Notes: generated by a model not told the origin, from the sequence alone. 64,000 nucleotides of DNA from Candidatus Omnitrophota bacterium (GCA_041653795.1 JBAZER010000004.1:8493-72492); one strand, 5' to 3'; positions 8,197 through 46,132 are shown, numbered from the stretch's first letter. Translations and numbers: made by a program.

Positions 8197-8893
8197 CCCT
8201 GAGCTCCGCGTAAAAAAGAGGCCGGCCTTCAGCCGCCCATTTGAGTTCGTAATTAGTTTTATTCATCCCGTCCAAGATTCTCTCATTCACCATTTCGCGC
8301 ACATTCTCCCAGAGTTCCGCAGTAGCCGCTATGGTTTTCTTCATGGCCGAAAAATAGTCTTTATCGTCCGTGGCGATTTCTACCAGCCCTTCCGGTACAA
8401 GCCGCGTGTGAAGAAGCGTGAGAAGCTCGGAAGTGAAAACCCGGCGCATCTGATGCCGGCGTTTCGGCCAGGGATCCGGAAAATAGATGTGAAAAAGGCT
8501 CACGCTTCCGGGCGCAATTGCTTCGGTTAAAAATGCCCGTGCCTCGGCCCGGACGAACCGGATGTTGGCAAGCGCCCGCTTCTGGGCACGCGCCTTCCCG
8601 ATGTTCATAAACTTGCTTATACGATCGATCCCGAGAAAGTTGGTTCCCGGATTTTCGTTCGCGCGGGCGACAAGGAATTTTCCCTTCCCGCATCCGATCT
8701 CCATTTCGACCGGGTGAGAATTCCCGAAGAACTCGCTGAAAACGATGGGATCGTACTTTTCTTTTACAAATTCTCGCGTCTTCTTTTTTTTGTCATTCCC
8801 GCGTCCGCCACAAGGCGCTGAACGGATCCGTCCTCTGGCGGAAAAGCGGGAATCCAGTTCTGGATCCCCGATAGAAGCATTCGGGGATGACAT
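8189..8893 (-). CDS. trmB: tRNA (guanine-N7)-methyltransferase TrmB with a MITE-derived N-terminus
   Basis: ORF 8189..8983. VEMEIGCGKGKFL, FLGID and HIYFPDPWPKRRH motifs. ATG at 8893 lies 2 nt after the upstream gene's TAG. No start codon exists between the repeat and the conserved core. Confidence 0.85.
   Translation of the reverse strand: MSSPNASIGDPELDSRFSARGRIRSAPCGGRGNDKKKKTREFVKEKYDPIVFSEFFGNSHPVEMEIGCGKGKFLVARANENPGTNFLGIDRISKFMNIGKARAQKRALANIRFVRAEARAFLTEAIAPGSVSLFHIYFPDPWPKRRHQMRRVFTSELLTLLHTRLVPEGLVEIATDDKDYFSAMKKTIAATAELWENVREMVNERILDGMNKTNYELKWAAEGRPLFYAELRAA
8792..8891 (-). mobile_element. family C double-hairpin MITE (GTCATYCCCG...CGGGRATGAC) with a nested family F hairpin, inside the trmB 5' coding region
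   Basis: GTCATTCCCGC[GTCCGCCACAAGGCGCTGAACGGATCCGTCCTCTGGCGG]AAAAGCGGGAATCCAG..TGGATCCCCG..CGGGGATGAC. Translated in trmB as SSPNASIGDPELDSRFSARGRIRSAPCGGRGND. Confidence 0.7.
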
Positions 8894-8895
8894 GT

Positions 8896-9972
8896 CTAGC
8901 GGCAACGAATCAGCCATACTAAAGTCTCCAGATGCCGTGTCCGAGGGAAAAAATCGAAGGGCATGATCTTTTGAATCTGCCATGCTTCCGGCGTCAATTT
9001 TTTAAGATCACGCGCGAGTGATTCCGGAGAACAGGAAAGATAGAACAGTGTCTTGAGGCCCGTGGCCCGGTTCAAGGTCTCGATCACGGACGGGAAAAGT
9101 CCGGCACGCGGCGGATCGATTAGACCGACGCAGGATTTTCCGTGGAATCCCGGAAGCACCTCCGGCAAATGCGTCTCGACTTTTCCTTCCAGGATATTCA
9201 CATGGCCGAGCCGGTGATAGCGAACGTTGTACTGCGCAAGTCTCACAGAGTCACGACACGATTCGATCATCACCACCTCTTTCGCGCGATCAGCCAGGGC
9301 GATCCCGAAGAGGCCGACGCCAGAATAAAGATCAAGAAAAACCGTATCCTTTTCCCAGTCGATAAGGCCCTTGATCCTTGAAACGATTTTCTCAAGGATC
9401 GATAGATTCGCCTGAAAAAAAGTATCGAGCGCATAAAAGATCTTCCGCCCGTGCACGGTCGTCCAGAAATAATTTTCTTCCTTCATTCGTAGCGACCGCC
9501 GGCCGATACCGCCCCAGAGCACCCTGCCTTCATCCCCGACACGAACAACCAGGTTCGCAACCCGGTAATCCTCCGGGAGCTTGCGGACCGCCTCTTCTTT
9601 TAGCGCGGGCAGGAAATCATTGATCTCTTTGCGCGCGATCGGACAAGTCTTCACCTCCTGCAGCCGCTGGGTCCCCGGCAGCATAAAACCCATCTGCCGC
9701 TCACCGTTATTCCTTTTACGCAAGGTAAGATCAAGACGATTCCTGTAGTAGTAAGACTCGGGCGATGGCGCGATCGGTTCGAAAACATCTTCCGGAAGGT
9801 TCAACTCCTTCACAAGAAGCGCCTTCAAGACAGCCTCTTTACGGGAGAGTTCTTCTTCATACGGGATGTCCTGATATTGACATCCTCCGCAGGTCCCGAA
9901 AATCGGACATAAGGGTTTTACGCTTGTGGACACTGCCGTTGGGGTCAACATGATGCGATAGTTTACGAACAA
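8896..9972 (-). CDS. 23S rRNA (uracil-C5)-methyltransferase, RlmD/RumA family
   Basis: 358 aa; Fe-S Cys cluster CPIFGTCGGCQYQ; SAM fold LDLYSGVGLFG; catalytic C-terminal region LFYLSCSPESLARD. Start may be 9951 (MLTPT). Confidence 0.8.
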   Translation of the reverse strand: MFVNYRIMLTPTAVSTSVKPLCPIFGTCGGCQYQDIPYEEELSRKEAVLKALLVKELNLPEDVFEPIAPSPESYYYRNRLDLTLRKRNNGERQMGFMLPGTQRLQEVKTCPIARKEINDFLPALKEEAVRKLPEDYRVANLVVRVGDEGRVLWGGIGRRSLRMKEENYFWTTVHGRKIFYALDTFFQANLSILEKIVSRIKGLIDWEKDTVFLDLYSGVGLFGIALADRAKEVVMIESCRDSVRLAQYNVRYHRLGHVNILEGKVETHLPEVLPGFHGKSCVGLIDPPRAGLFPSVIETLNRATGLKTLFYLSCSPESLARDLKKLTPEAWQIQKIMPFDFFPRTRHLETLVWLIRCR

Positions 9973-17347: not shown

Positions 17348-17824
17348 TTAGAAGACCAACCCCATCACGAGAAGCCCCAGCCCGATCGCGGCAGAGCTCA
17401 ACACCACCACACGGAACGCGAGCGGCTCCGCGAGAAGCGCCGTCAGGAACTCCCGGGACTTCTTGTAAAAGAAGACAAGCGGCACGACCTTGATCAGGCC
17501 GAGGCTGACCACCAGCGTCACCACAAAGTTTTCCATGCTCGCGGCCCTCGCCACGAGTTTTGTTTCTTGATGGTTGGCGAGGACCGCCCCAATTTCAGAT
17601 TCTCTGAAATTGATAAGTATTGGGACGGCCTTCGCCAATTCCATCCAGGTCCATAAAACAAGGGCTAACACCAGCGCCCCAGCGATCAGCAACCAGCGTG
17701 GTCGCTCTTCCGGATAAAGCTTCGCGATGAGCCGCTTCAGACCTTCCACAGAAAAAACGGCCCACACGCCTCCAAGGACCATCCCCGCGCCCAACACGAT
17801 ACTCAAAATTTTAAAGTAATTCAT
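17348..17824 (-). CDS. hypothetical membrane protein containing an in-frame family B repeat
   Basis: 158 aa with about 4 hydrophobic helices. The segment AVPILINFRESEIGAVL is encoded by the repeat at 17587-17626. ATGA overlap with the upstream small ORF. Confidence 0.5.
   Translation of the reverse strand: MNYFKILSIVLGAGMVLGGVWAVFSVEGLKRLIAKLYPEERPRWLLIAGALVLALVLWTWMELAKAVPILINFRESEIGAVLANHQETKLVARAASMENFVVTLVVSLGLIKVVPLVFFYKKSREFLTALLAEPLAFRVVVLSSAAIGLGLLVMGLVF
17587..17626. repeat. family B hairpin unit inside a CDS
   Basis: CCCCAATTTCAGATTCTCTGAAATTGATAAGTATTGGGAC. Confidence 0.7.
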
Positions 17825-18024
17825 CGATCCATCCTCTCATCAGTCTTCGGTTTCCTGTTTGCAGCCTGTTTTTTTCGCCCTTCAATGATCAGCGCTACGC
17901 CGGCCAGAAAAAACGAGAGGAACCCCAGAAATGAAAAGACGATGCTGGGCAGGGTCCCCACCCAGAACGCGCAGAGGATCAGCGTTAACCCGGGGAGAAA
18001 ATATTTCCAAAGATAATTTTTCAT
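17821..18024 (-). CDS. small two-TM membrane protein (copy 1)
   Basis: ORF 17821..18042; MKNYLWKYFLPGLTLILCAFWVGTLPSIVFSFLGFLSFFLAGVALIIEGRKK. A paralog lies at 21258-21440. Confidence 0.5.
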   Translation of the reverse strand: MKNYLWKYFLPGLTLILCAFWVGTLPSIVFSFLGFLSFFLAGVALIIEGRKKQAANRKPKTDERMDR

Positions 18025-18027
18025 AAT

Positions 18028-18100
18028 CTCAATACCTTTCAATTTTTACGAAGCGGTCCCAATTCCAATCAATCGAAGCGGAACAGAGATTGGGGCTGCC
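18028..18100. repeat. tandem family B units
   Basis: CTCAATACCTTTCAATTTTTACGAAGCG + GTCCCAATTCCAATCAATCGAAGCGGAACAGAGATTGGGGC; same two-unit arrangement as 37559-37646. Confidence 0.65.
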
Positions 18101-18170
18101 CTGATTACCATTCCGGAAACATTCTCGCAGAATCGATGAAGAGTGAAAAATAAAAAAGGGTCACACCTAT

Positions 18171-18248
18171 TTATTCCCTTACCCTTACCGCATATTCTTT
18201 CTCGAGTAAATGGTTGTTAAGGTAGACCTGTTTTCCGGATTTGTCGCT
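18171..18248 (-). pseudogene. 3' remnant of a SNase-type nuclease gene (last ~25 codons)
   Basis: Hand translation RSDKSGKQVYLNNHLLEKEYAVRVRE* versus the C-termini VDKTGKQIYLNNLLLEKGYAVRVRD* (19790 gene) and ECYLNNLLLEKGYAVKVRN* (22123 gene). It abuts the Fic stop codon. Confidence 0.55.
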
Positions 18249-19422
18249 ACGTGTTTGCTTCCGGGCCCGTGAACCGGTACCGGGTTGAGCGGCCGGAACC
18301 TTCGGCTGTAAGAAGCCCGAGCTTCATCAAATGAATGAAATCCTTGCGGGCGGTCTCGTCGGAGCAGTGGTTCAACTTGCAATATTTCCGGGTCGTGATC
18401 CATTCCCCGCTTTTCATCATCCACCGTAATGCCTTGATGTGTTTTTTGTCCAATCTTGCCCATGTATTCTGCCCGAGCACTTGTTTGATATCTTTGATCT
18501 TCCCCTCTTTTTCGAGCTGGGATTTGACCCGGACAAGCTGGTCTCTCAAGGCTTCCAGGTAGTAGAGGACAAAATAGGTCGCGTCATAGCCATGTTCTTC
18601 GGCCGCCTGGATGGACTTGTAGTAAGCGACCTTGTGATGCTCGAAATAGTCCGAGGGCGCGAGAAGGTTGATGAAACCATACCCCTGTTTTTCAAGATAG
18701 AGGTTGGAAAGGGCCCTGGCACTCCGTCCGTTCCCATCATCAAAGGGATGGACATGAACGAAGTAAAGATGCACAAGGGCGGCATTCACAAGCGGATGGA
18801 TCCCCGTCTCGCGATTCATCCATTCTATAAAGCGGTCCATCATGCCCGGGACTTCCAGCGCCGGGGGCCCTTCGTAAACAGCCCGGCCGTGTCCGTCCAC
18901 AACATAGATGGGGCCTTTGCGATACTGGCCGACCGTAATAGGACGATCCTTGTGGGTGTTGTAGACCAGGATCTTGTGCAGTCCATGGATTCTCTCATGA
19001 GTAAAAGGATCCGCTTTATGCTTGTGCATGAATTCCAGGGCAAGTTTGTTGTTGTAGATCATCTGCATGCTTTCATCCGCGAAATCTTTTTTCTTCCGGT
19101 CCATGTTGCGAAGCGCCGCTTCCAGAGAGGTGACAGCCCCCTCGATGCGGCTCGAATAATAGGCTTCCTGCTTGAGAGCGCTCCTGGAAAGCGCCGAGAC
19201 AGAAACGGGGGAAAGTTTGAGGGATGAGAGAAATCCCTTATCCTGAGAGATCGCGGAAATAAGGGAAAGGACCTCCGGGACCAGAACCATCCAAAAGGGT
19301 TTTCCATTCTTTGCGGGCAAGCCGACGGCTTGGGCTTTTTTAGCTCTTTCTTTTCCGAAAGCCATCCACGCCTTTTCGCCTAGAGCCCCTATAGCTTGTG
19401 ATCTTGTCAGATAAGCGTTCAT
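18247..19422 (-). CDS. Fic-family protein (class II, intramolecular inhibitory motif) with C-terminal wHTH
   Basis: 391 aa; Fic motif HPFDDGNGRSARAL (HxFx[DE]GNGRxxR); N-terminal SSRIEG matches the [ST]xxxE[GN] inhibitory helix. Confidence 0.85.
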   Translation of the reverse strand: MNAYLTRSQAIGALGEKAWMAFGKERAKKAQAVGLPAKNGKPFWMVLVPEVLSLISAISQDKGFLSSLKLSPVSVSALSRSALKQEAYYSSRIEGAVTSLEAALRNMDRKKKDFADESMQMIYNNKLALEFMHKHKADPFTHERIHGLHKILVYNTHKDRPITVGQYRKGPIYVVDGHGRAVYEGPPALEVPGMMDRFIEWMNRETGIHPLVNAALVHLYFVHVHPFDDGNGRSARALSNLYLEKQGYGFINLLAPSDYFEHHKVAYYKSIQAAEEHGYDATYFVLYYLEALRDQLVRVKSQLEKEGKIKDIKQVLGQNTWARLDKKHIKALRWMMKSGEWITTRKYCKLNHCSDETARKDFIHLMKLGLLTAEGSGRSTRYRFTGPEANT

Positions 19423-19789
19423 TTTGAGATCCCTATAATCGTACTTGCCTTAGAGGGCAAGCACGATAAAGTCGGAGCCCACGGTCAGCTCTGCACTTTA
19501 TCGCAAAGTTAATCGCCAACTATTCGCCAATTATTGTACCCGGCCTTTGGCGATTTGTCCAACCGGTATTATTCCCGTACTCTGACCGCACTTGCTCCCA
19601 GTGAGCAAGTACCATCGCGTACTGGCTATCATTAAAAGATCCATCGAAAGCCAGTACAGCACTGATTTCCAATAATTTTAGATGTGAATCAGGCGTCGCT
19701 CGTTAATGTCAGCCCTGGCTCTTTTTCAAACATTGAAGGTAGCCAGGACAGTCCAAACTACCTTTTAAAAAATGAAAAACAAAGTTTGG
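19423..19789. repeat. 367-bp intergenic stretch made of hairpin modules
   Basis: GTACTTGCCTTAGAGGGCAAGCAC, GCACTTGCTCCCAGTGAGCAAGTAC (cf. CACTTGCGCCAGTGCGCAAGTG at 22079-22100), and AGTACAGCACTGATTTCCAATAATTTTAGATGTGAATCAGGCGTCGC (cf. 16795-16850). Confidence 0.5.
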
Positions 19790-20509
19790 TCAGTCGCGTA
19801 CGCGAACGGCATATCCTTTTTCCAGCAACAGGTTGTTAAGGTAGATCTGTTTTCCGGTTTTATCTACATAAAAGACGTCGCCAAGATAGCGGCCCCATTT
19901 TTCTTTTCTTTGGGTGCGGGCGGATTTCAGAATAATGGACTCGCAATGGGCAAGTTCGCGCTCGACGAAACGCTTGGCAGCCCGGCCTTCTCCGCCCTGA
20001 ATCGTTCTTCGATTCAAGGACGGATCCGCCTTCTTTGTGGCGGAGTCCCCACTAAACTCGGGACAATCAATCCCCTTCAAACGGATGGTTTCATGCTTCT
20101 GGTCGTCAAAACCGGTGTCGATCTCGAAGTCACGCGAGGACCATTCCCCTTTCGCGGCCTTGTCCTCCAATGCGAGGCGCTTCTTCTCATCCGGCACCGT
20201 GATCAGTGCCCGGTAATGTGCCCAAGTCAACTTTGGCCGCGCGGCCAAAGTCGGGAATTTCTCGGCAAATCTCATGCAACGATAGAAGACCGTTTCTCCG
20301 AATCCAAGATCTTTCGCAAGATTGGCGACGATCTTTTTACCGTGTTCCTGATTCGGATTCTCAGACCTTTGGAGGTATTCATTAATAAGCCGGCCGGTCT
20401 CCCAGTAAGTACGGACTTTGGCTTCTTCTATTCTTTGTCGGCCGAGAAGAAGGGTTTCCTCAACCTTCTTGCGGAGCGCGGCATAGGTAGCGACGGAGAC
20501 GGTGTTCAT
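19790..20509 (-). CDS. DUF1016 N-terminal domain fused to a truncated staphylococcal-nuclease (SNase) domain
   Basis: ORF 19790..20671; ATG at 20509 gives an ATGA overlap with the methyltransferase stop. YWETGRLINEYL...LAKDLGFGETVFYRCMRFAEKFP (YhcG-like N-domain); IRLKGIDCPE and GRYLGDVFY..YLNNLLLEKGYAV (SNase motifs). Confidence 0.7.
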   Translation of the reverse strand: MNTVSVATYAALRKKVEETLLLGRQRIEEAKVRTYWETGRLINEYLQRSENPNQEHGKKIVANLAKDLGFGETVFYRCMRFAEKFPTLAARPKLTWAHYRALITVPDEKKRLALEDKAAKGEWSSRDFEIDTGFDDQKHETIRLKGIDCPEFSGDSATKKADPSLNRRTIQGGEGRAAKRFVERELAHCESIILKSARTQRKEKWGRYLGDVFYVDKTGKQIYLNNLLLEKGYAVRVRD

Positions 20510-21081
20510 TTTTCTCTTTTGCAGGTTAGGACAATCCCGTAATGGTACGGTTTTAGATCGTAAAGTTCCGGCGAAACGAATCCAGCGCTCTCGGCCCACC
20601 GGATGCAATCTTCGGGCTTGGGACGGATATCTATGGAAGGCCCTCGCGGTGTCGAAGGATCGTAGTTCCAATGAATAATGCCGAGTTTGCCATCCGGTTT
20701 TAATACCCGTTTCGCTTCTTTAAGCAGGACCAAAGGATCCTCGAGATGAAGGATATTAAAAAGCATGACATAATCGACGCGGGCATCGGGCAAACCCGAT
20801 CCTTCGGCCATGAAGTCCCGCAGCAGAACCCGAACGTTATGGATCCCCTGCTTTTTCGCCTCTTGATCCGTGATCCGGATCATTTCGGGCTCGATATCCA
20901 AAGCGTAGATCTGTCCGCGAATGATCTTGGCAGCGGCCAAGGTGAATGTTCCGTATCCGCACCCGAATTCGACCACATCACGGGTTTGTCCGTTGATCCC
21001 CAGGGTCATGATGACGCGATGCGGATCGAAAAAGTTCTCCCATGTCCCGCGATCCGGCATTCCGCTTTCTCTGGTTTTCAT
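20506..21081 (-). CDS. class I SAM-dependent methyltransferase
   Basis: 191 aa; VVEFGCGYGTFTL motif I; LKPDGKLGIIHW post-motif region. Looks like a small-molecule type, with no DNA-MTase motifs. Confidence 0.8.
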   Translation of the reverse strand: MKTRESGMPDRGTWENFFDPHRVIMTLGINGQTRDVVEFGCGYGTFTLAAAKIIRGQIYALDIEPEMIRITDQEAKKQGIHNVRVLLRDFMAEGSGLPDARVDYVMLFNILHLEDPLVLLKEAKRVLKPDGKLGIIHWNYDPSTPRGPSIDIRPKPEDCIRWAESAGFVSPELYDLKPYHYGIVLTCKREK

Positions 21082-21170
21082 AGGCCCTGACTTTTATTAC
21101 ATTTCACTAATAAGGAAGTCAAGGTTGTCCTTGTCTTAGATTTGATTCCCCTAAGGGTTGGCAAGGGCTG

Positions 21171-21210
21171 CCCCAATTTCAGATTCCCTGAAATTGATAA
21201 GAATTGGGAC
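21171..21210. repeat. family B hairpin unit (part of a degenerate duplicate of 17570-17630)
   Basis: GGTTGGCAAGGGCTGCCCCAATTTCAGATTCCCTGAAATTGATAAGAATTGGGAC, about 91% identical to 17575-17626 including flanks. Confidence 0.7.
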
Positions 21211-21257
21211 TGTCACGATTTCCGCTTCCCTGTAATCCATGATAATCATGATGCCCC

Positions 21258-21440
21258 TCATCCTTTTCCTCTATCCGGAAAGCATCGTTTCCTCCCCTCA
21301 ATAATAAGCGCTACGCCGGCCAAAAAGAACGAGAGAAACCCCAGGAATGAGAAAACCATGCTGGGCAAGGTCCCCACCCAGAACGCACAACCGATGAGCG
21401 CCAACCCGGGGAGAAAATATTTCCAAAGATAATTTTTCAT
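21258..21440 (-). CDS. small two-TM membrane protein (copy 2, divergent C-terminus; possibly a pseudogene)
   Basis: MKNYLWKYFLPGLALIGCAFWVGTLPSMVFSFLGFLSFFLAGVALIIEGRKRCFPDRGKG; DNA is about 87% identical to 17881-18024 (hand alignment, 18 mismatches in 144). Confidence 0.4.
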   Translation of the reverse strand: MKNYLWKYFLPGLALIGCAFWVGTLPSMVFSFLGFLSFFLAGVALIIEGRKRCFPDRGKG

Positions 21441-21604
21441 AACCAAGGTTATTCTCGCAGAATCAATCGGCAACCGCAAGTAAGAGCGCTCCGGCGGGAA
21501 GTGTGTTTCGCCAACGTTCGCCATGATTCTCCATAGTCAAAAAATAAACGGGTAATCATGACTGTCCAAGTCGCCATTAATGAAAAGAAAATAAAGACTT
21601 GGGC

Positions 21605-21645
21605 GCCATGCCCCACCGAGGCATGGCTGAACTCGCGAGCGTCGG
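21605..21645 (+). repeat. family H hairpin (variable stem, conserved CCAsCGA loop, CTCGCG tail)
   Basis: GCCATGCC-CCACCGA-GGCATGGC-TGAACTCGCGAGCGTCGG. Confidence 0.5.
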
Positions 21646-21749
21646 CCTCGATGAGAAACCCTGGCTCTCGGCCTCCTTAGCGTGGCTTAACACACTTCCC
21701 GCCGTCACTTTATATTAGAAAAGGCGAAGGGTTGAGACGAGGCACGCTA

Positions 21750-21832
21750 GTCCCAATACCTATCAATTTTCACGAAGTGGAAATTGGGGCAATCCTTGTC
21801 ACCATTATGGAAAAGAATGAAAGACAAGGATA
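21750..21832 (+). repeat. family B composite repeat
   Basis: GTCCCAATACCTATCAATTTTCACGAAGTGGAAATTGGGGC + AATCCTTGTCACCATTATGGAAAAGAATGAAAGACAAGGAT. Confidence 0.75.
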
Positions 21833-22122
21833 GAACGACGAGCGGGCAGGGACTTCTCGAAGAGAAGGAGCGAGGAGTGGAGGGCGAACGAGGGAATCCA
21901 CGCCGGGGATTCCCGAGTGGTGACGAGGCTCAAGCCCGAAGCCTTCGCGTGGATAAAAGCTCGATATTGAAGTGGGACGGCAGGGTCGAAACATTTGGTC
22001 AGTTTCGTACGTTGTCGTACACGGAGATCCTTTGAAAGTGACGACAACGCACTGACACAAGGGTGTCAGTGTCCGGACACACTTGCGCCAGTGCGCAAGT
22101 GCGTAAAAGTCGGAATGATCTG

Positions 22123-23319
22123 TCAATTCCGTACTTTTACGGCATATCCTTTTTCTAAAAGCAGGTTATTAAGGTAGCACTCGTGCCCTGTGGCACCAGT
22201 ACCTCCGGTCGAAGCTCCGAAGCTTCGTACCGGAAGGATCTCTTGGCCGTCTATGTCCGCCACACTGCTCGGCGGATTACTTCGGCTCGCTTTCTGTGGG
22301 ACCGGGTAAAACACGTCGGCTTCGTAACGGTCGTAGGTGGCGTTCTTACTGCTCAGGACGGTGAGGGACGGGACGCCTTTCAGGACCTTTTCCACGAACT
22401 GTTTCGCCTTTTTTCCCTCCCCGGTATCGATCTCGGGGCAATCGATCCCCCGGAGCCTCAGCTTCTGGCGGCTGGCCCCTCGCATACCGGTATCCAGCAT
22501 GACCCAGAGCGTGTCCCCGTCGACCACGCTCTCGAGATAGGCCCGGTAAGTGAAAAGGTCTTGGGCCGTGCGGCCGTCCTTCACAAGTTTCGTACCGGTC
22601 CATGCGACGATGTCCCCGGCCTTCAGCCCGCGGGCTTCCGCGGACGTCAGGGCGCGGTAGCCCTTGAACCCGTGGTCCAGAAGCAGAATGTTCTTGTCAG
22701 GCCAGGGGGTTTCGTTGGGGTCCTTGATCCGGCAAGTGTTTAAAAGCCCCAGCTTCGGGACTTTGAGCAGTTCGGTGGGATTTTTCTCCTGCGAAGACGG
22801 GGACATCAAGTCCCCGCGAGCGTGCCGAAAAGACAGCTTTTCGGCTACCTGCGCACGCACGGATTCATGGCGAACCAGGGCGCGAAGATCATTCCGGGTC
22901 AGACCTTCCCGGAGGGCGCGGCGTTCCAGGGCCTTGCGTTTTTGAACATCCTGGACCGTCAGAAGTTCGATGTGATGGGCCCAGGGCAATTCGCGCGCGG
23001 GCGCGCGTTTCCGGTTTTCCAGATAAAACTGGCGCATCCGCCGGAGGCTCGCAACGGAAAATCCCGATCCCAGGTTTTCGGTAAGTTCTGCGGAAAATTT
23101 GTGGATGCGGCCGGCGCCGTAAGCGGCGCGGGGTTCGCCGTCCTGTTCGATCTCCACGACGTATTGACCGGTCTTCCAGTAGGCCGTGGCGAGAGAGTGG
23201 CGGGCGGTATTGAAAAGCCGGATGACGTCGGCAACGATCTCTTTGTACCGGCTGGGCGTCAATTTGTTCGTCACGGCGAACCTCCCGTTCCTTCGCGGAT
23301 CCTTACAGGTGCGGGACAA
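22123..23319 (-). CDS. DUF1016 N-terminal domain fused to a full staphylococcal-nuclease (SNase) domain
   Basis: 398 aa; YWKTGQYVVEIEQ...FSVASLRRMRQFYLE (YhcG-like N-domain); VVDGDTLWV, LRLRGIDCPE, YDRYEADVFY, YLNNLLLEKGYAV (SNase OB-fold motifs). Confidence 0.7.
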   Translation of the reverse strand: MSRTCKDPRRNGRFAVTNKLTPSRYKEIVADVIRLFNTARHSLATAYWKTGQYVVEIEQDGEPRAAYGAGRIHKFSAELTENLGSGFSVASLRRMRQFYLENRKRAPARELPWAHHIELLTVQDVQKRKALERRALREGLTRNDLRALVRHESVRAQVAEKLSFRHARGDLMSPSSQEKNPTELLKVPKLGLLNTCRIKDPNETPWPDKNILLLDHGFKGYRALTSAEARGLKAGDIVAWTGTKLVKDGRTAQDLFTYRAYLESVVDGDTLWVMLDTGMRGASRQKLRLRGIDCPEIDTGEGKKAKQFVEKVLKGVPSLTVLSSKNATYDRYEADVFYPVPQKASRSNPPSSVADIDGQEILPVRSFGASTGGTGATGHECYLNNLLLEKGYAVKVRN

Positions 23320-23354
23320 AAATCAACCTCTCTCTGAGGACAATGTCCGGGTTA

Positions 23355-23756
23355 CTATTTTCTTTCTTCCGCCCGTTTAAGGACCTTCCGGACAAAAACG
23401 AGATATTCCCCGGATTCTTTTTCACTGATCAGCTCCCCCGCGCCGTAAAGGTCCTGATTGCGTTTCATTCTCATAGAATTTCCGAAAACCAGAATATCCG
23501 AATCCGCCAGGATCTCGCTCATCCGCTCGAGGATCTTCACGTGGTGCCCCGGGAGGCTGCGTACCTTCCGGCCTTCCTGCGCGCACAGAGCCATGCCGGT
23601 TTTGATCAGGGCTTGAAAGGCGTAGGTAAAACGAACCTCCGGAAAGGGATCTTTTTCCGCGATCTCAAGATCACGATGCGCGTTCCGGAAACGCTGGCGG
23701 ATCTCTTCTGCGGCGAACTTGAAAGGTTGGAAAAATTCCCTCTCCGCGGCCGTCAT
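23355..23756 (-). CDS. HEPN-domain protein (putative toxin partner of the upstream nucleotidyltransferase)
   Basis: 133 aa all-helical; RMKRNQDLY resembles the HEPN R-x4-6-H motif with Tyr in place of His; ATGA overlap with the MNT gene. Confidence 0.55.
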   Translation of the reverse strand: MTAAEREFFQPFKFAAEEIRQRFRNAHRDLEIAEKDPFPEVRFTYAFQALIKTGMALCAQEGRKVRSLPGHHVKILERMSEILADSDILVFGNSMRMKRNQDLYGAGELISEKESGEYLVFVRKVLKRAEERK

Positions 23757-24295
23757 ACCAACCGGACCTTTTTCTTTTTCGCGAGGGACTTGAAGAAGGG
23801 GTCTTTCTTGAGCTTTTCGTGATATTCCCGCGGGTCCGCGCTGATCACATTGATCTCGCGATCCGTCTCTTTTTGGAACGTCGCGACCGCTTTCTGAAGC
23901 GCGAGAGTGTCATGCCCGCCGATGACAAGAAGGTCGATATCGCTCGCGGCATCCATTTTTCCGCTGGCATAAGAACCGAAGATAAAGGCCTGCTCGATCC
24001 CGGGGATGCCCGAAAGCGCGTCCCGGAGCTTTTGCTCAAGACCGATCGTTTTGAGAACGATCCCCTTGTATTCTTTAAGGAGCGGGTAATCCCGGTTCAG
24101 GGAGTAATAAGAGGCGCCCCCGCGCTCGCAACATTTCAGGACCCCTTCCCGCTCAAGCTCTTTGAGCTTGCGGGAAAGGTTCCCGTCATCCAGCGAAAAT
24201 TTACGGGCCATTTCGCTGACGTAAAGCTCGGCATCCTCATGCAGGAACATATAACCCAGGATGGCTTTTGTGTGTTTGGAACGCATGCTGATCAT
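23753..24295 (-). CDS. wHTH + minimal nucleotidyltransferase (MNT) domain protein
   Basis: 180 aa; FIFGSYASGKMDAASDIDLLVIG (GSxxxG...DxD of the Pol-beta NTase fold); N-terminal wHTH ELYVSEMARKFSLDDGNLSRKLKELEREG. Confidence 0.75.
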   Translation of the reverse strand: MISMRSKHTKAILGYMFLHEDAELYVSEMARKFSLDDGNLSRKLKELEREGVLKCCERGGASYYSLNRDYPLLKEYKGIVLKTIGLEQKLRDALSGIPGIEQAFIFGSYASGKMDAASDIDLLVIGGHDTLALQKAVATFQKETDREINVISADPREYHEKLKKDPFFKSLAKKKKVRLV

Positions 24296-24307
24296 CGGAG
24301 CATCCTT

Positions 24308-24347
24308 CCCTGTAGTTAATTACAGGGAATACTGTAACTTAGTACAG
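24308..24347. promoter_or_regulatory. candidate operator: tandem inverted repeats upstream of the wHTH-MNT gene
   Basis: CCCTGTA-gttaat-TACAGGG (24308-24327) followed by ACTGTA-acttag-TACAGG (24331-24348), 13 nt upstream of the ATG at 24295. Confidence 0.35.
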
Positions 24348-24401
24348 GGGGCTTGTCAAGCCCGGCTCACAGAGCGAAGGCGGGGTACTGTTCTACAAAT
24401 C

Positions 24402-24671
24402 TCATAGGGCGGCAAGGCGCTTCTTCGCGGCGTCCCCGCTTGCGTAGACCGCGCCCTTTTCGCAGACCATTTTTTCGATTTTCCCCCACTCCTTGGGAGT
24501 ATAGGGAGACTGCACAGTCACTTGACACGGCAGGATCATAATCCCGTCCTTCGTCACGCCGAACGCGACGGCGGACCCCTTCTGCAAACCGAGGATCTTA
24601 CGAACGCTGTTGGGTATGGTCACCTGTCCTTTGGATGTCATCTTCGTCGTTTCAATGATCGTCATCGGCAC
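24402..24671 (-). CDS. AbrB/MazE/SpoVT-family DNA-binding protein (antitoxin-like)
   Basis: 89 aa; SKGQVTIPNSVRKILGLQKGSAVAF swapped-hairpin motif. Confidence 0.7.
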   Translation of the reverse strand: MPMTIIETTKMTSKGQVTIPNSVRKILGLQKGSAVAFGVTKDGIMILPCQVTVQSPYTPKEWGKIEKMVCEKGAVYASGDAAKKRLAAL

Positions 24672-24850
24672 GGCTCCTTGTCAGAATAGCGTTAGGTATT
24701 ACTTCCTTACTTCCCAACCAGGAGGATAACGGCTCAAGAAAGGAAAGTCAAGCGCGGGCCATCTGTTGGGCTATGGGCTTTGATCGGACGGGAGCCCCTC
24801 ACCCCCGCTTGTCCGCCAAAGCTTTGTGTTAAATGGTACCAGGAGCCTTT

Positions 24851-26449
24851 CTATGCATCAAAAGGCTTTAAACTAACTCTGGCCTTGATAGCATCACATT
24901 CTCGCATATAACAATCTTCAAAAATTTCTGATATCTTTTTCTCGTATTTCTCCTTGTCGTCTTTTGGCACTTGGTATAAAACAGCATCGTGCATGGGCAG
25001 TAAAAAATCCGCATCTCCCAGAGAAGAATCTACTGCCAGGATTGCCCTTTTCAAAATTAGAGATGCTGTACCCTGGATGCGTTGGCTTATAACCCATTTC
25101 TCCTCATTTGCCGAGAGCGTTTCCTTCGTCGAAGGCCGATAACGATAGTTGCCATTGCGCGTACCAATCCTGCCTTCTCTGAGAAGAGCATCACACAGCT
25201 TTTTTTTCCACTCGTTAATTTGTTTAAACTGATCAAAAAAATTATCAACAGCCGCTTGAACGGCAGCCTGATTTTGCCCTGTTGATTCAAATATCATCTT
25301 AACGAGATTTTCTTTTTTCATGCCAAATGAAAAAGAAAGAAATATTTTTTTTGCTATATCCCGATTGGCTTTTTCTCCCAGAATAGCCTTCCCTAAAGCT
25401 GTATACACATCTCCAGAATTATATAAATTGATTAACGCTTTATCTTTTGCATCGTCGGCAAGAATTCCGGGTTCGAATTGGCTAAAATCTGGATATATTA
25501 ATATTTTCTCTCTGTCTGAAGCTATGATGTCACGATTTTCTCGTTTTAGTTGCTGCAAGTGAGGATCGGTGACTGTGGCTCTTCCGGTTACTGTTCCTAG
25601 TGAATCGTAATATGGAAAAACCCTGTTTGACCCTATCGCTCCAAATCTCAAAAGAATGCCTTTATCCCTCTCGGCTTTTTTGACTCGTTGAAAATGGAAC
25701 AAAAGATCAATTTTCGCCTCATAGAGACTAGCTAAGTCATCAAAAATATCCGTAAAAACACATTTGGCAAGGTAATCGTAACCGTTATCTTTCAGAGATT
25801 TAGCCAACGTCTTTTTGTCAGAAACATCGATGATGCCCCATTGGTCTCTCAGCTGTTCATTGGATAAACGGGTCTGCTCATCAAGAATATCCAACCGCCT
25901 CAACAATCGCTTTGTGTTAATTCTAATTCCTCGATATTGGCTTCTAAGCATGATGCGCTGGACTGGGTTTTCTATGCTGTAAAATCTATCCTTCTCACCT
26001 TTTATCTCAAGCTGGTCGTTCATATGTTGCCATACGTTAATCAAAGATGAGGATAGCTGCCCCAATAATCTGCTTATCTCTAGTACGCCGATATTCGTTT
26101 CACCTTTAAGGCAAATCCGTTTCAACAGATCAAAATCTTTCTCGATCTTGAAGTATGGCTTGATCAATTGCCAAATACTCCATGGAGCCTCTCTCTTTTT
26201 GTCTTCATACGGTTGGCCAACGACGAGCCGAGCCGCCAGACAAACATCTATAATTTTTATCGGAAAATCTGTTTTTATATTTTTAAAATATGGAATAAGC
26301 CGATTTAATTCATATGAAATTATTTCGGTTTTAATTCTACTGAGGTCTTTCGCATCCACAATCTGCGGAGGATGGCCCTGCTTTCCTAGAAAAAGAATGG
26401 GAGGAACTTCTATGTTGAATGGGTCTAAAACATAACTTAAGAAGAACAT
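24851..26449 (-). CDS. family A (Pol I-like) DNA polymerase domain protein, no nuclease domains recognised
   Basis: 532 aa. TVTGRATVTDPHLQQL (cf. TxTGRLSSxxPNLQN). ILIYPDFSQFEPGILA (motif A, cf. DYSQIELR). RDIAKKIFLSFSFGM (motif B, cf. RRxAKxxNFGxxYG). QGTASLILK (cf. QGTAADIIK). LLPMHDAVLYQVPKDD (motif C, cf. QVHDELVFEVHKDD, Glu to Ala). The ATG lies 2 nt after the RT stop. Confidence 0.8.
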   Translation of the reverse strand: MFFLSYVLDPFNIEVPPILFLGKQGHPPQIVDAKDLSRIKTEIISYELNRLIPYFKNIKTDFPIKIIDVCLAARLVVGQPYEDKKREAPWSIWQLIKPYFKIEKDFDLLKRICLKGETNIGVLEISRLLGQLSSSLINVWQHMNDQLEIKGEKDRFYSIENPVQRIMLRSQYRGIRINTKRLLRRLDILDEQTRLSNEQLRDQWGIIDVSDKKTLAKSLKDNGYDYLAKCVFTDIFDDLASLYEAKIDLLFHFQRVKKAERDKGILLRFGAIGSNRVFPYYDSLGTVTGRATVTDPHLQQLKRENRDIIASDREKILIYPDFSQFEPGILADDAKDKALINLYNSGDVYTALGKAILGEKANRDIAKKIFLSFSFGMKKENLVKMIFESTGQNQAAVQAAVDNFFDQFKQINEWKKKLCDALLREGRIGTRNGNYRYRPSTKETLSANEEKWVISQRIQGTASLILKRAILAVDSSLGDADFLLPMHDAVLYQVPKDDKEKYEKKISEIFEDCYMRECDAIKARVSLKPFDA

Positions 26450-26451
26450 GA

Positions 26452-28095
26452 TTAATTGTCGTATTCTGGAAGATCTCGATACAATTCAGTAATATTAATT
26501 GGCTCTAATGGAATAAAGTAATTCCCCCTCAAAGAAGCATCTTGCAATGCCCTGTAAGTGCCCCTTATGTCCGCTCTTACAAATGGTTGAACTTTATCTC
26601 TAATGTGTGGCGCATAGGGGAGCTCGTGTATAGCAATCATGCCGTTTCTTTGGGTGATATAATGTTTTAATTTTTTAAATCGCTTTGCCAAATAAACTCT
26701 ATCCTCCGCACTACCACAAGCACCCAGATACAACAATGCTCCAGACAATAAGGGCACGGATTTCGTTCCCTTAACAATCTGCTTCGCGAGGTTTATTAAT
26801 TTAGTATTGGAATATTTGTGCGCCACGAACAACTGCCACAAGAGATAACTTTGCCAGCTATAAATGTTCTTTTCTCGGTCAAGCATAATCTTCACTAACT
26901 CTTTTAAATTTTTTGGGGTTAGATCCACAGACTTCAAATATCTTATAAAACTGTCACTAGAACATGGCTGTTCAGACAACTGACGGATTACAGATCGCGT
27001 GATTTTTTTAAAATCAAATCCTCGCTTTGCTTCTTTGCAAAGCGCAATCTTTTCGAGTCTGTGTATGCAAAATCTAAATTCTCTTGCTTGCGTTTTCTTC
27101 GCCCTAATTAATTCTAATGCATATGCTTTCAACAAAGGAAAACTCTGTTGCACGGTGCTCCGCCTATGCGACTTAAATAGTTGATCTATTTGTTCAACTT
27201 TTCTATTTGGTTTCCTTATATAGTTTTCGATTTCCTTTGTGTTTTGGTGAAGGATGAGAGTCTTTTGCGCATTTACATTCAAGCCTATTTTTCTAAGTTC
27301 AATTATTACTTCCTTAAGAATTTTTCGGGCGCTATATTTCGAATCGCACACTATGCGCATATCGTCTGCATACCGAACATACTTATAGCCTTTGCTTACC
27401 ATAGCCTTATCAACTCTGTGCATTAAAACATTTGCTAAAAAAGAAGATGCATCCCTGTTTTGAGGAATTCCATGCTTTTTGTATGGCGTCCAAGCTCTTA
27501 GTAGTCGGGAAATGATTTCGACTGTTTTCTGAATTCGTCGAACCTGCGTTTTTCCTAAGCAAAGGTTAGGCAATTCATCAATTAATGCTTTTTGAATATC
27601 GCTGATTCTAATATTCTCATAAAAATTTTGGATGTCGGAAACCAATAAAACATCCGTCTTTTTTCGAAGTTTTGTTTTCGCAGCATCCTCAAATTTAGTC
27701 CACTGACTAGGCGCGTTCAGAAACATATATTTATTTTTTGGCTTTTTTGTCCACCTGTGGCTAAAAACCGATGGTGAAAGCAATTTATCATAAAAGCGTA
27801 TCAGATAGTTCGCCGCCCCATGGTACAAGAGCCTGTCATGAATTGTCGTTTCCAAAGAGTATCGTAAGGTGAAACCCTTTTTGGGAATATTGTATTGCTC
27901 TGACTTTGCAGGGAAATACTTCAATTGCGGCTTCTTGTTATGTTTCATAAAATGGCCAAGAATTTTATCGGCCCGCAATGCATCTCCATAAATAAGCGTG
28001 TCCGGAAACCAATCATCTTTTAAATCGCACTTCATTTGCTTGACCAATACATCTATATTGAACGGAATGCCTTCTATTGTTATTGAGCGGTTCAT
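26452..28095 (-). CDS. reverse transcriptase (non-LTR prokaryotic type, Abi/UG-like) with a helical C-terminal domain
   Basis: 547 aa. IPKKGFTLRYSLETTIHDRLLY (RT1/2), LVSDIQNFYENI (RT3/A), GIPQNRDASSFLANVLM (RT4/B), YVRYADDMRIVC (RT5/C, YADD), LNVNAQKT (RT6/7). About 250 aa of helical repeats follow the palm. Confidence 0.85.
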   Translation of the reverse strand: MNRSITIEGIPFNIDVLVKQMKCDLKDDWFPDTLIYGDALRADKILGHFMKHNKKPQLKYFPAKSEQYNIPKKGFTLRYSLETTIHDRLLYHGAANYLIRFYDKLLSPSVFSHRWTKKPKNKYMFLNAPSQWTKFEDAAKTKLRKKTDVLLVSDIQNFYENIRISDIQKALIDELPNLCLGKTQVRRIQKTVEIISRLLRAWTPYKKHGIPQNRDASSFLANVLMHRVDKAMVSKGYKYVRYADDMRIVCDSKYSARKILKEVIIELRKIGLNVNAQKTLILHQNTKEIENYIRKPNRKVEQIDQLFKSHRRSTVQQSFPLLKAYALELIRAKKTQAREFRFCIHRLEKIALCKEAKRGFDFKKITRSVIRQLSEQPCSSDSFIRYLKSVDLTPKNLKELVKIMLDREKNIYSWQSYLLWQLFVAHKYSNTKLINLAKQIVKGTKSVPLLSGALLYLGACGSAEDRVYLAKRFKKLKHYITQRNGMIAIHELPYAPHIRDKVQPFVRADIRGTYRALQDASLRGNYFIPLEPINITELYRDLPEYDN

Positions 28096-28195
28096 GGTTA
28101 TCTATGGTTTCCTAAATTAACCTATTAGCTTAATTCGAAAAAACTCCAGAGATTTATTGCTTGATTCTATTCCCTCACCAGTAGAACCGGCATAT

Positions 28196-28345
28196 TTACC
28201 ACGGTATTTTGATCCCCGCCTCAATCGCGGTCTCCTTCATGGATTCACGGAAGCGGACAAAGGTCTTGGCGTTCCCTTCAAAGAGGTCCTTGGTGAGGAC
28301 GACTTCCACGCCCAACGGGTCCCCTTCCTTGCTCGTCAGGTTCAT
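28196..28345 (-). CDS. 49-aa hypothetical ORF between the promoter-like module and the RT gene
   Basis: Below the ORF-track cutoff. Hand translation MNLTSKEGDPLGVEVVLTKDLFEGNAKTFVRFRESMKETAIEAGIKIPW*. No Shine-Dalgarno seen. Confidence 0.25.
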   Translation of the reverse strand: MNLTSKEGDPLGVEVVLTKDLFEGNAKTFVRFRESMKETAIEAGIKIPW

Positions 28346-28382
28346 TCGAATGGTACACCGGGTACCGTTCTATGGCAGAGCC

Positions 28383-28420
28383 ATTCTCGCAGAATCGATC
28401 GCCCACCGCAAGCAGGACGG
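28383..28420 (-). promoter_or_regulatory. conserved promoter-like module TTGCGG-N17-GAGAAT with the ATTCTcgcAGAAT palindrome (copy 3)
   Basis: Minus strand: TTGCGG (28411-28406), 17 nt, GAGAAT (28388-28383). The same module is at 21451-21486; the palindrome alone is at 18121-18137. Confidence 0.35.
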
Positions 28421-28488
28421 AAATCTTGAGGGGATCCCACTTTAGGTTGTTATCTTGAAAGCAATTCCAATGCGTTTCGTCACCGCTC

Positions 28489-28526
28489 AGATCGCCCCAG
28501 CGAGGCGATCTTCGCTCGCGCGTTCG
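28489..28526 (+). repeat. family H hairpin
   Basis: AGATCGCC-CCAGCGA-GGCGATCT-TCGCTCGCGCGTTCG. Confidence 0.5.
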
Positions 28527-28535
28527 ACTGCACTC

Positions 28536-28686
28536 GGCGGACAGGAGTCGTCACGAGACAGCTCTCGGAGCTGATGGGAGCTTGGTTCCGTTCACTCGAG
28601 AACGGATCCCATCAGCGAGAGCGCAAGCTGGCACTCGTCGCAGGAGCGAGTGAACAGCCGGTGTCGAGAGACGATTCCTGTCCGCC
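28536..28686. other. 151-nt highly structured element (17-bp closing helix + two internal hairpins); ncRNA or MITE candidate
   Basis: GGCGGACAGGAGTCGTC (28536-28552) pairs with GACGATTCCTGTCCGCC (28670-28686), 16 Watson-Crick pairs plus 1 G-T. Internal hairpins at 28561-28622 and 28627-28658. Confidence 0.35.
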
Positions 28687-28878
28687 ACCCTGCCCGTTTT
28701 GTCTCACGAGCGTGCCTCCTCGCACTGGGATTGCTTCCCAAATACAGTCATGCACCTGTTCCGTTCAGCTTTCTTGATTTTAGTTGCGTTCCCGAGTACC
28801 ATCCTAGTCTTAGATTTTGTTTTATAGGTGGCGACAACACTGATTTTAATTAAGATTGGGACGAGGAGCGGGGAGAAA

Positions 28879-32956: not shown

Positions 32957-32969
32957 GGAAATCAGGACA

Positions 32970-33095
32970 GTCCCAATACTTATCAATTTCAGCTAAACTG
33001 AAATTGGGGCAGTCCTTGTCGCCTTTTAAGAAGGGAAATAAAAGACAAGGACAGTCCAAGTCACCATTAATTGAAAACAAAATAAAGACTTGGGC
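32970..33095 (+). repeat. family B composite repeat plus two further hairpin modules
   Basis: GTCCCAATACTTATCAATTTCAGCTAAACTGAAATTGGGGC + GTCCTTGTC..GACAAGGAC + GTCCAAGTCACCATTAATTGAAAACAAAATAAAGACTTGGGC (the latter also at 21550-21605). Confidence 0.7.
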
Positions 33096-35778: not shown

Positions 35779-35861
35779 ATCCTGACTTTTATTTTCTTTT
35801 TAGAAATGGTAGTCAGGATTGCCCCAATTTCCGCTTCGCTTCAATTGATAGGGATTGGGAC
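35779..35861 (-). repeat. family B composite repeat (CCTGAC hairpin + core unit)
   Basis: ATCCTGACTTTTATTTTCTTTTTAGAAATGGTAGTCAGGAT + TGCCCCAATTTCCGCTTCGCTTCAATTGATAGGGATTGGGAC; close relative of 45632-45714. Confidence 0.7.
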
Positions 35862-37558: not shown

Positions 37559-37646
37559 GTCCCAATACCTTTCAATTTTTACGAAGCGGTCCCAATACCA
37601 ATCAATCACAGCTTTGCTGTGATTGGGGCTGTCCCAACTACCATTT
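37559..37646 (+). repeat. tandem family B units
   Basis: GTCCCAATACCTTTCAATTTTTACGAAGCG + GTCCCAATACCAATCAATCACAGCTTTGCTGTGATTGGGGCTGTCCCAACTACCATT. Confidence 0.7.
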
Positions 37647-37801
37647 ATGTAAAGAAATTTAAAGTTGGGATAGCAGTATTATACAGAAAAATTACTTTTG
37701 GGGAATGGTAAACATGAAGCGGGTAACGGTTTGGCTTTGATGTTCAGCATTGTTCGTTGCCCGCCTGGTGCTTTGCCAGGCTCCGCGGGGGTATCCGGGT
37801 T

Positions 37802-45608: not shown

Positions 45609-46132
45609 CACACAGCCTTGTCCTGGCATCTATCCTGACTTTCATTTTCTTTTCCATTACGGCAGTCAGGATTGCCCCGATTTCCACTGCGTGGAAATCG
45701 AATAGTATTGGGACTATTTTTTTTTGATAGAAGGTCGCCAGGGCTAGTCCCATCAACCTTTAAATCTTCGGATGGAGGATGGGGCTTGTCCTTTTCTTCG
45801 ATCTTGCGAATAACCTGCCCTATTTCAAAATCTCTGTCGAGCGAATCGTCCAGTTCAAATTGAAGCTTCGGCGTGTAGCGCATTTTGATTGCCACACCGA
45901 CCTCATGTTGAAGGAACCCGGCCGCACGATCGAGGACCTTAAGTGTTTCTTCTTTTTTCTTTTTATCCCCCATGACGCTTATAAACACCACGGCGGACTT
46001 GAGATCCGGCGTGATCTTCGTGTGAGTGACGGTTACAAAACCCAGGCGCGGGTCCTTGATCCGTTCCAGGATAAGATTGCTAAGCTCCATTTGGAGGAGC
46101 GATGCCACACGTTCGGTTCGTTTTCCTTGCAT
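45608..46132 (-). CDS. rbfA: ribosome-binding factor A with a repeat-encoded C-terminal extension
   Basis: 174 aa. RVASLLQMELSNLI..DPRLGFVTVTHTKITPDLKSAVVF core ends near aa 115. The last ~35 aa (PNTIRFPRSGNRGNPDCRNGKENESQD..) are read from the family B repeat at 45632-45714. Confidence 0.8.
   Translation of the reverse strand: MQGKRTERVASLLQMELSNLILERIKDPRLGFVTVTHTKITPDLKSAVVFISVMGDKKKKEETLKVLDRAAGFLQHEVGVAIKMRYTPKLQFELDDSLDRDFEIGQVIRKIEEKDKPHPPSEDLKVDGTSPGDLLSKKNSPNTIRFPRSGNRGNPDCRNGKENESQDRCQDKAV
45632..45714 (-). repeat. family B composite repeat overlapping the rbfA 3' end
   Basis: ATCCTGACTTTCATTTTCTTTTCCATTACGGCAGTCAGGAT + TGCCCCGATTTCCACTGCGTGGAAATCGAATAGTATTGGGAC. Confidence 0.7.

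Follow-up and report, generated by a model that had tools for sequence, protein, structure and literature searches.

A UG9-small reverse transcriptase and its family A DNA polymerase partner from a variable defence island in the genome of a Candidatus Omnitrophota bacterium

The association between a reverse transcriptase (RT) and a DNA polymerase of family A (PolA) was recorded by Kojima & Kanehisa (2008) as family D, which corresponds to the UG9 group of today. Mestre et al. (2022), who cite that work, place UG9 in Class 1 of the UG/Abi RTs, list the RT-associated PolA as cluster 58 and report that UG9 is enriched in defence islands; they distinguish a "small" type (60/79) from a "large" type (19/79), in which a protease is present at the N-terminus and an MBL hydrolase is encoded upstream. 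Sharifi & Ye (2021), who presented myRT, put the co-occurrence of UG9 and the PolA model PRK14975 at 94% for complete genomes. UG9 is not included in the DRT numbering, which runs from 1 to 11. Here we analyze a pair of this kind, encoded in a stretch of 64,000 nucleotides from a Candidatus Omnitrophota bacterium (GCA_041653795.1 JBAZER010000004.1:8493-72492). We call this whole stretch the window, and all positions are counted within it. The locus is almost certainly a horizontally acquired copy of the two-gene module made of a UG9-small RT and an RT-associated PolA, located in a defence island of an Omnitrophota genome.

Other Class 1 systems provide the functional background. In DRT7 (UG10), the RT makes poly(dT) by protein priming and a fused PriS primase makes poly(dA), which results in double-stranded DNA (dsDNA). 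DRT3 (UG3 + UG8) pairs one RT of Class 1 with one of Class 2, and the two together make a poly(GT/AC) duplex that drives abortive infection, the trigger being the RecBCD inhibitor Gam. The Class 1 enzymes studied so far work untemplated and use one of their own tyrosines as the primer. DRT4, DRT6, and AbiK are oligomeric, protein-primed, template-independent synthases of single-stranded DNA (ssDNA), and the priming residue of DRT4, Tyr125, is absolutely conserved.

Both partners of the module have dedicated hidden Markov models (HMMs) in PADLOC-DB v2, termed RT_UG9_small and RTasPolA. The RT of the window matched RT_UG9_small with an E-value of 3.1e-171 (569 bits; spanning RT residues 5-546 and positions 3-541 of the 541 in the profile), far ahead of all other UG, Abi, retron, and CRISPR-associated RT models in that database; the runners-up were UG9_large (4e-100) and UG21 (3e-57), and the top RT profiles were all of UG types. 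PolA matched RTasPolA with an E-value of 1.9e-130 (profile positions 21-474 of 475). Pfam identified RVT_1 (1.7e-15) in the RT and DNA_pol_A (2.9e-32) in PolA. The window pair is a divergent member of a known, experimentally uncharacterized family and not a new system. The first-pass annotation, which was made from the sequence alone, had proposed an undescribed two-polymerase system and had held that no known RT system includes a Pol I-like partner. The claim of novelty fails because the pair is already catalogued under its own name, in PADLOC as well as in the three publications cited above, and the second statement is wrong for the same reasons.

The RT and PolA genes are intact and lie head-to-tail on the minus strand, encoding proteins of 547 and 532 aa, respectively. 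Their junction, read directly, is GAC AAT TAA tc ATG, with 2 nt between the RT stop codon (26452-26454) and the PolA start codon (26449-26447), exactly as had been annotated. Translational coupling of the two genes at this junction is likely; no obvious Shine-Dalgarno sequence was found within it. An alternative public gene call starts PolA at V31 and yields a protein of 502 aa. We favour the 532-aa start because residues 1-30 can be aligned to homologues that are 530-540 aa long and because a 532-aa gene was called at this locus in three metagenome assemblies independent of one another. The coordinates of the genes and of their principal features are collected in Table 1.

Table 1 Features of the RT-PolA locus and of the island that contains it.
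Feature	Position in window	Strand	Basis
UG9-small RT, 547 aa, Class 1 UG/Abi	26452..28095	-	Open reading frame (ORF), PADLOC, Pfam, AlphaFold2 (AF2) model, fold matches
RT catalytic motif YADD, residues 242-245	27361..27372	-	Translation
Predicted C-terminal all-helical (alphaRep-type) RT domain, ~residues 298-540	26476..27204	-	DSSP of AF2 model, full-length superposition on Class 1 RTs
RT-PolA junction with 2 nt between stop and start (TAA tc ATG)	26447..26454	-	Sequence reading
RT-associated family A DNA polymerase (RTasPolA), 532 aa	24851..26449	-	ORF, PADLOC, Pfam, AF2 model, fold
Reduced PolA N-terminal domain, residues 1-125, probably exonuclease-like and inactive	26075..26449	-	No Pfam exonuclease match, fold alignment
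PolA motif A, DFSQFE (D321 metal ligand; E326 aligned with the Klenow E710 steric gate)	25472..25489	-	Translation
PolA motif B / O-helix, RDIAKKIFLSFSFG	25322..25363	-	Translation
PolA motif C, HDA, replacing the canonical HDE	24983..24991	-	Translation
Low-GC two-gene cassette including a 100-nt AT-rich leader 5' of the RT, GC 0.384	24851..28195		Composition
Strain-specific island, ~10.7 kb, from atpC-proximal small ORFs to the ArsP_2 permease gene; context, not part of the system	18054..28757		Comparison with relatives

The linkage of the two genes was analyzed by scanning one genome per species for PolA relatives, and 80 loci from 80 different genomes, belonging to many phyla, were kept. 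A UG9-like RT is encoded immediately upstream on the same strand in all 78 testable loci; the other two have less than 150 bp of upstream sequence. The distance from the RT stop to the PolA start is between -11 and +12 nt in 75 of these 78 loci, the commonest junction being an 8-nt overlap (39 loci), and the spacing of +2 nt seen in the window occurs in 9. For the 59 complete pairs, the pairwise distances of RT and PolA are strongly correlated (r = 0.958, Mantel p <= 0.001). Among these pairs, one and the same locus is closest to the window for both proteins. The nearest relatives are 53% identical for RT and 45% for PolA. The constant adjacency of the homologues, their close spacing, and their co-divergence bear out the earlier proposal of a coupled pair and point to joint inheritance of the two genes.

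Clustering of 597 flanking ORFs from the 78 loci did not reveal a conserved third gene. The flanks carry sporadic genes for an integrase, for HsdM/HsdR of type I restriction-modification (R-M), for MBL (with the large variant), and for a DnaQ-like exonuclease (4 loci), and the related loci include some with large RTs of ~780-830 aa and an upstream MBL gene. The pair is present in 5 of 72,556 plasmid records and 2 of 2.9 million viral contigs and was not found in phage genomes, on which grounds a phage or plasmid replication module was rejected. On a plasmid and on the two viral contigs, the RT is again upstream of PolA. The Dinoroseobacter shibae plasmid pDSHI01 (NC_009955.1, 51856-55099; our locus L081) is conjugative and carries the pair directly after genes for a relaxase and a type IV coupling protein (T4CP); RefSeq names the two proteins only "RNA-directed DNA polymerase" and "DNA polymerase".

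The RT shows the expected palm features, i.e. the motif A aspartate (D154), the YxDD motif at residues 242-245, and the motif 6 lysine (K278). All 59 family members have D154, D244, D245, and K278, and 58 of them have Y242. Ala243 of the window RT is unique among the 59, the others having Met (29) or Val (29). W414 and Q415 are also invariant in the family. An acidic N-terminal motif, K-DDW-xx-D...D (D27, D28, W29, D32, and D38), is near-invariant in UG9 RTs; positions 28003-28017 of the window encode its residues 27-31. In the AF2 model (pLDDT 91), the RT core is followed by helices only, from residue 298 to residue 539 according to DSSP. This region would be the alphaRep domain that stands in place of a thumb, as judged from the helicity of the model and from its superposition on DRT6, DRT4, UG15, and AbiK. 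The best full-length fold matches in the PDB are DRT6 (TMq 0.61), DRT4, UG15, AbiK, Abi-P2, and AbiA, and G2L4-type RTs are among the weaker ones; no solved UG9 structure was found there. The translation, the model, and the Class 1 fold matches all agree with the first-pass description of a YADD enzyme with a helical C-terminal domain of the Abi/UG type.

Other classes of RT were considered and rejected. The score against the group II intron model TIGR04416 was 78.8 bits versus a cut-off of 300, that against retron_St85_RT was 49.6 bits versus a cut-off of 235, and the NCBIfam Drt2-5 equivalogs were all far below their cut-offs. Rfam returned nothing relevant in the region 18-34 kb, even at E <= 1. 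A group II intron RT or maturase was rejected on the first of these scores and on the lack of an Rfam intron match in that region, and a retron on the second score, on the lack of an Rfam match, and on the sequence upstream, which is neither conserved nor unusually structured in the family as a whole. For a diversity-generating retroelement (DGR), the direct repeats within 23.5-29.5 kb are at chance level (14-17 nt), no Avd-like neighbour is present, and the top profiles are of UG type. The RT falls outside all three clades, with UG9 as its best profile.

We also looked for an RNA partner. Taken over 57 loci, the 240-nt regions upstream of the RT show no excess of structure over a control region downstream of PolA (median z of -0.45 versus -0.51), and sequence conservation upstream of the RT is confined to close relatives. 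With no Rfam match and no excess of structure or conservation, an upstream non-coding RNA (ncRNA) of the kind used by the Class 2 systems DRT2, DRT9, and DRT10 was rejected.

PolA is predicted to have thumb, fingers, and palm in a Klenow/Bst-like fold; its AF2 model (pLDDT 92.1) shows TMq values of ~0.8 to Klenow, the Bst large fragment, Pol theta, and the apicoplast polymerase apPol. A family profile of the RT-associated PolAs matches Bst, Taq, and Klenow at ~1e-41 to 1e-43, from about residue 127 on. Motifs A, B, and C and the TGR...P.LQ segment, which had been noted at the outset, are present by translation and alignment, and PolA shares this segment as well as QGTA with the Pol I large fragments. 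All 59 RT-associated PolAs examined share residues D321, E326, R363, K367, G376, H487, D488, and A489, and each of them carries HDA where the aligned position of Bst carries HDE. To our knowledge, an HDA motif C has not been seen in characterized family A enzymes, and no published description of a family-wide HDA motif C was found in the literature searched. Based on the invariant D321 and D488, on E326, and on R363 and K367 of the O-helix, PolA should be a templated, dNTP-specific, and primer-dependent polymerase.

The enzyme differs from a housekeeping Pol I. PRK05755 scored 104 bits versus a cut-off of 720 and TIGR00593 scored 92 versus 600, and the DEDD residues of the 3'-5' exonuclease are missing. 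The match to PRK05755 is limited to profile positions 454-869 of 889, with no 5' nuclease in PolA. There was no Pfam exonuclease match in PolA and no PDB sequence match for residues 1-130. The fold model, in turn, suggests that the first ~125 residues form a reduced exonuclease-like domain. If this reading of the fold is correct, the domain is catalytically dead to judge from its residues: D68 is the sole conserved acidic residue in this region, there is no DxE motif, and position 9 is D, N, P, or S. The first-pass statement that PolA has no recognizable exonuclease or 5' nuclease domain is therefore right as far as sequence matches are concerned, while the predicted fold suggests a reduced exonuclease-like domain. 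In four related loci from sphingomonad-type genomes (L067, positions 8443-9384, and three similar ones), a gene for a DnaQ-like DEDD 3'-5' exonuclease lies ~200 nt downstream of PolA on the same strand, and its product may make up in trans for the exonuclease missing from PolA.

The two genes are the sole low-GC block of the 64 kb. Their GC content is 0.386 over 24851-28095 versus 0.52 in the remainder of the window, and the lowest value of any other 2-kb bin is 0.458. AtpD of the window is 94-96% identical to proteins of Omnitrophota metagenome-assembled genomes. Comparison with four contigs from related Omnitrophota, in which AtpD is 94% identical, showed that these relatives have ~0.1 kb where the window has ~10.7 kb (18054-28757), the order of genes in them being the atp operon, a few small ORFs, and then genes for an ArsP_2 permease, GDT1, RluA, and radical-SAM proteins. 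A host segment with a small membrane-protein ORF is duplicated within the island (17869-18053 and 21262-21441, plus 21748-21794), which suggests at least two successive insertions at one hotspot. The other island genes have a host-like GC content (0.527), and the RT-PolA cassette is thus a separate, probably more recent acquisition.

The neighbours comprise genes for a Fic protein (18247-19422), two DUF1016_N+SNase proteins, a methyltransferase, a HEPN-like/MNT pair, and a protein of the MazE/AbrB type. The cassette sits in a variable defence island, and both the low-GC block and the defence neighbourhood seen at first reading are confirmed. The minus-strand genes at 19790-20671 and 22123-23319 are paralogues, each encoding a DUF1016_N (YhcG-type) N-terminus and a staphylococcal-nuclease-like C-terminus, and both match the PADLOC candidate family PDC-S02; the SNase domain was found by Pfam in the protein from 19790-20671, and the protein from 22123-23319 shows the same C-terminal motif by eye. 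The HEPN-like and MNT/HTH pair (23355-24295, minus strand) matches the PADLOC candidates PDC-M05B and PDC-M05A. Directly downstream of PolA, the MazE/AbrB-type gene (24402-24671, minus strand, 89 aa) has no obvious adjacent toxin partner. On the other side of the cassette, small ORFs at 28196-28440, between the RT and the island edge, had no family match. Three independent assemblies of this locus (L082, L083, and L084) all end 200-320 bp upstream of the RT start, at about 28299-28411 in the window, and these common contig breaks suggest strain heterogeneity or a repeat at the RT-side edge of the cassette.

A very stable, GC-rich element of ~280 nt (28459-28738; core hairpin 28536-28686) lies 440-640 nt upstream of the RT. 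Its minimum free energy is -95.8 kcal/mol, with z = -6.6 on the plus strand and -5.4 on the minus strand, and it is absent from Rfam. Two homologues on metagenome contigs (L095 and L103) are 86-88% identical and show compensatory changes in the inner hairpins. They are accompanied by a tRNA synthetase gene and by deaminase and EAL genes, with no RT or PolA; since the homologues occur beside unrelated genes, the element was rejected as a part of the RT-PolA system. It is probably a dispersed structured repeat or a novel small RNA of Omnitrophota. A second, ~80-nt repeat is dispersed over the window in copies that are 75-90% identical (837-921, 17565-17633, 21127-21212, 21749-21830, 32968-33052, 35815-35861, 37586-37669, and 45639-45715). 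It also adjoins the structured element in L095 and L103, several of its copies lie at variable-island junctions, and it may be a REP/MITE-like recombination substrate.

The module is probably an anti-phage or anti-mobile-element system with DNA synthesis as its output. The hypothesis of the first-pass annotation, in which the RT makes a first strand and PolA turns it into a duplex, is a reasonable one for UG9. Our best overall explanation, a UG9-PolA module that makes duplex DNA for defence, is one that we hold with slightly less than even confidence, mainly on account of its mechanistic tier; the duplex-DNA mechanism itself, drawn from homology, is tentative. The RT, like DRT4, DRT6, AbiK, and DRT7, would probably oligomerize and make untemplated ssDNA primed from its own side chain. 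The co-translated PolA, Klenow-like and with neither proofreading nor 5' nuclease, would copy this RT-made strand, probably after snap-back of the 3' end or its hand-over. An untemplated RT strand that is copied by PolA would yield a duplex or partly duplex DNA. Its build-up in the course of an infection would either halt replication of the phage or be lethal to the cell; the trigger could be a phage factor that blocks host nucleases. As analogues among the sister Class 1 systems, DRT7 and DRT3 are direct precedents for such a two-polymerase dsDNA logic. A more specific version, in which a protein-primed, untemplated RT hands its 3' end to a proofreading-free HDA PolA, would make snap-back- or microhomology-primed synthesis a third, mechanistically distinct route to duplex DNA that serves as an immune signal or effector; we regard it as rather doubtful.

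Several points weigh against this explanation. A family A polymerase needs a primer and cannot start chains, and no primase is present in the UG9 module. Second-strand synthesis would therefore need snap-back or hand-over, and this priming step is pure conjecture. Protein priming by the UG9 RT is not assured either, since no Tyr, Ser, or Thr outside the core RT motifs is invariant among the 59 UG9 RTs. The best priming candidate is Y123, which belongs to a flexible loop (SHR...KY.F) and whose location is reminiscent of Tyr125 in DRT4; it is a Tyr in just 50/59. Motif C is HDA, not HDE, in every member (59/59), and to judge from Klenow mutants in general, catalysis could be reduced or altered as a result. 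The 150 best cluster representatives from a library of 1.84 billion proteins include no natural RT-PolA fusion and are all <= 554 aa long, and no experiment on any UG9 was found in the searchable literature.

The same two proteins could share the labour in another way, with the RT acting as a protein-primed primer maker. Its short untemplated tail would anneal by microhomology to single-stranded nucleic acid of the phage or host, and PolA, which lacks an exonuclease, would extend it and copy the DNA or RNA of the invader, and the resulting protein-capped products would jam replication. PolA has the residues of a templated, primer-dependent enzyme and no primase partner, which makes a 3'-OH supplied by the RT the simplest source of a primer. 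The tight translational coupling suggests a complex, and Pol theta, a polymerase that extends minimally paired 3' ends, is among the top fold matches of PolA. However, the match to Pol theta is no better than those to Klenow and Bst, and E-values do not separate them; DRT7 and DRT3 make self-complementary products and not copies of an invader, and there is no direct evidence for such a primer-making role. We consider this division of labour unlikely.

It is very unlikely that PolA is a DNA-binding scaffold or sensor and not a working polymerase, the effector DNA being made by the RT alone as in DRT4. Such a role would fit with the replacement of the auxiliary carboxylate of motif C by Ala in all members, and the single-gene Class 1 systems DRT4, DRT6, and AbiK do work without a partner polymerase. 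Yet D321, D488, R363, K367, and E326 are invariant in 59/59 sequences at a mean identity of ~30%, a degree of conservation that is hard to explain without catalysis.

A non-immune module for DNA repair or damage tolerance is quite improbable as well. In this case, the RT and a gap-filling polymerase would serve in end joining or translesion synthesis, comparable to the G2L4 RT or Pol theta. Neither enzyme has proofreading, G2L4-type RTs are among the weaker structural matches of the RT, and a DnaQ-like exonuclease gene follows PolA in four related loci. The distribution of the pair is sporadic and horizontal, though: it has a low GC content here, is absent from the close relatives of the host, and occurs in many phyla. 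Its flanks contain R-M, integrase, and toxin-like genes, its RT belongs to the Abi/UG clade and not to G2L, and the published enrichment of UG9 is in defence islands.

That the pair serves to replicate a mobile element, be it a retro-element, as the first-pass annotation had offered as its alternative, or a plasmid-like one, is highly improbable: two polymerases of complementary template classes could in principle replicate an RNA/DNA element and the cassette is clearly mobile, sometimes residing on conjugative plasmids beside relaxase and T4CP genes, but no integrase, endonuclease, terminal repeats, or conserved ncRNA travel with the pair, the 80 loci kept represent 80 different genomes, plasmid (5/72,556) and viral (2/2.9 million) occurrences are rare with none found in phage genomes, and the group II intron and retron profile scores are far below their cut-offs.

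As a discovery, the locus has little weight: publications cover the pairing from 2008 onwards, and PADLOC detects it automatically. UG9 is nevertheless one of the larger Class 1 UG/Abi groups still without an experimental phenotype or biochemistry. The comparative data (synteny, coupling, and co-divergence; no third gene, ncRNA, or fusion; the apparently dead exonuclease-like domain; the invariant HDA motif; and no invariant priming Tyr) sharpen the questions to be addressed experimentally, and the results on DRT7 and DRT3 make two-polymerase dsDNA a concrete and testable model for UG9. The Omnitrophota copy widens the known host range of UG9; it is a poor starting point for experiments because the host is uncultured, and the proteobacterial orthologues, e.g. 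those of Pseudomonas and Vibrio, are better suited. If the hand-over and duplex reading were true, no family A DNA polymerase before this one would have been shown to serve prokaryotic immunity as a dedicated component, and bacterial defence would include an activity like that of Pol theta.

Compared with the systems described so far, the UG9 RT has its nearest solved folds in DRT4 (UG15), DRT6 (UG12), and AbiK. These are single-gene systems with no polymerase partner, and DRT4 has the invariant Tyr125 for which UG9 offers no invariant candidate. DRT7 (UG10) resembles the UG9 module in joining a Class 1 RT to a second, unrelated DNA-synthesizing activity. It differs in that its AEP primase is fused in cis and starts chains de novo, whereas the UG9 partner is a separate family A polymerase, which cannot. 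DRT3 also has two side-by-side polymerases that make complementary strands, but both of its partners are RTs, one of them with an ncRNA template, while the UG9 partner is DNA-dependent and no ncRNA was detected. PolA resembles the Pol I large fragments (Klenow, Bst, and Klentaq) and Pol theta in its fold (TMq ~0.8), in motifs A and B, and in the TGR...P.LQ and QGTA segments. It differs by having no 5' nuclease, by the reduction of its predicted exonuclease-like domain to ~125 residues without DEDD, by HDA, and by its constant position downstream of an RT.

Within UG9, the large type shares the RT clade and the PolA partner with the window pair. The window RT, in contrast, has 547 aa, starts at the UG9 core, such that its match to the UG9_large profile begins only at profile position 235, and lacks a protease at the N-terminus, and its neighbours do not include an MBL gene; on these grounds, an assignment to UG9-large was rejected. 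With no such protease and no MBL gene, the window pair has no separate nuclease effector. The correspondence with UG9-small and RTasPolA is complete as regards the genes, their order and strand, the tight junction, the architecture of RT plus alphaRep, the defence context, and the absence of protease and MBL. What sets the window pair apart from other UG9 members is its distance from the nearest relatives (53%/45% identity), its host from an unusual phylum, Omnitrophota, and a YADD motif instead of YMDD or YVDD.

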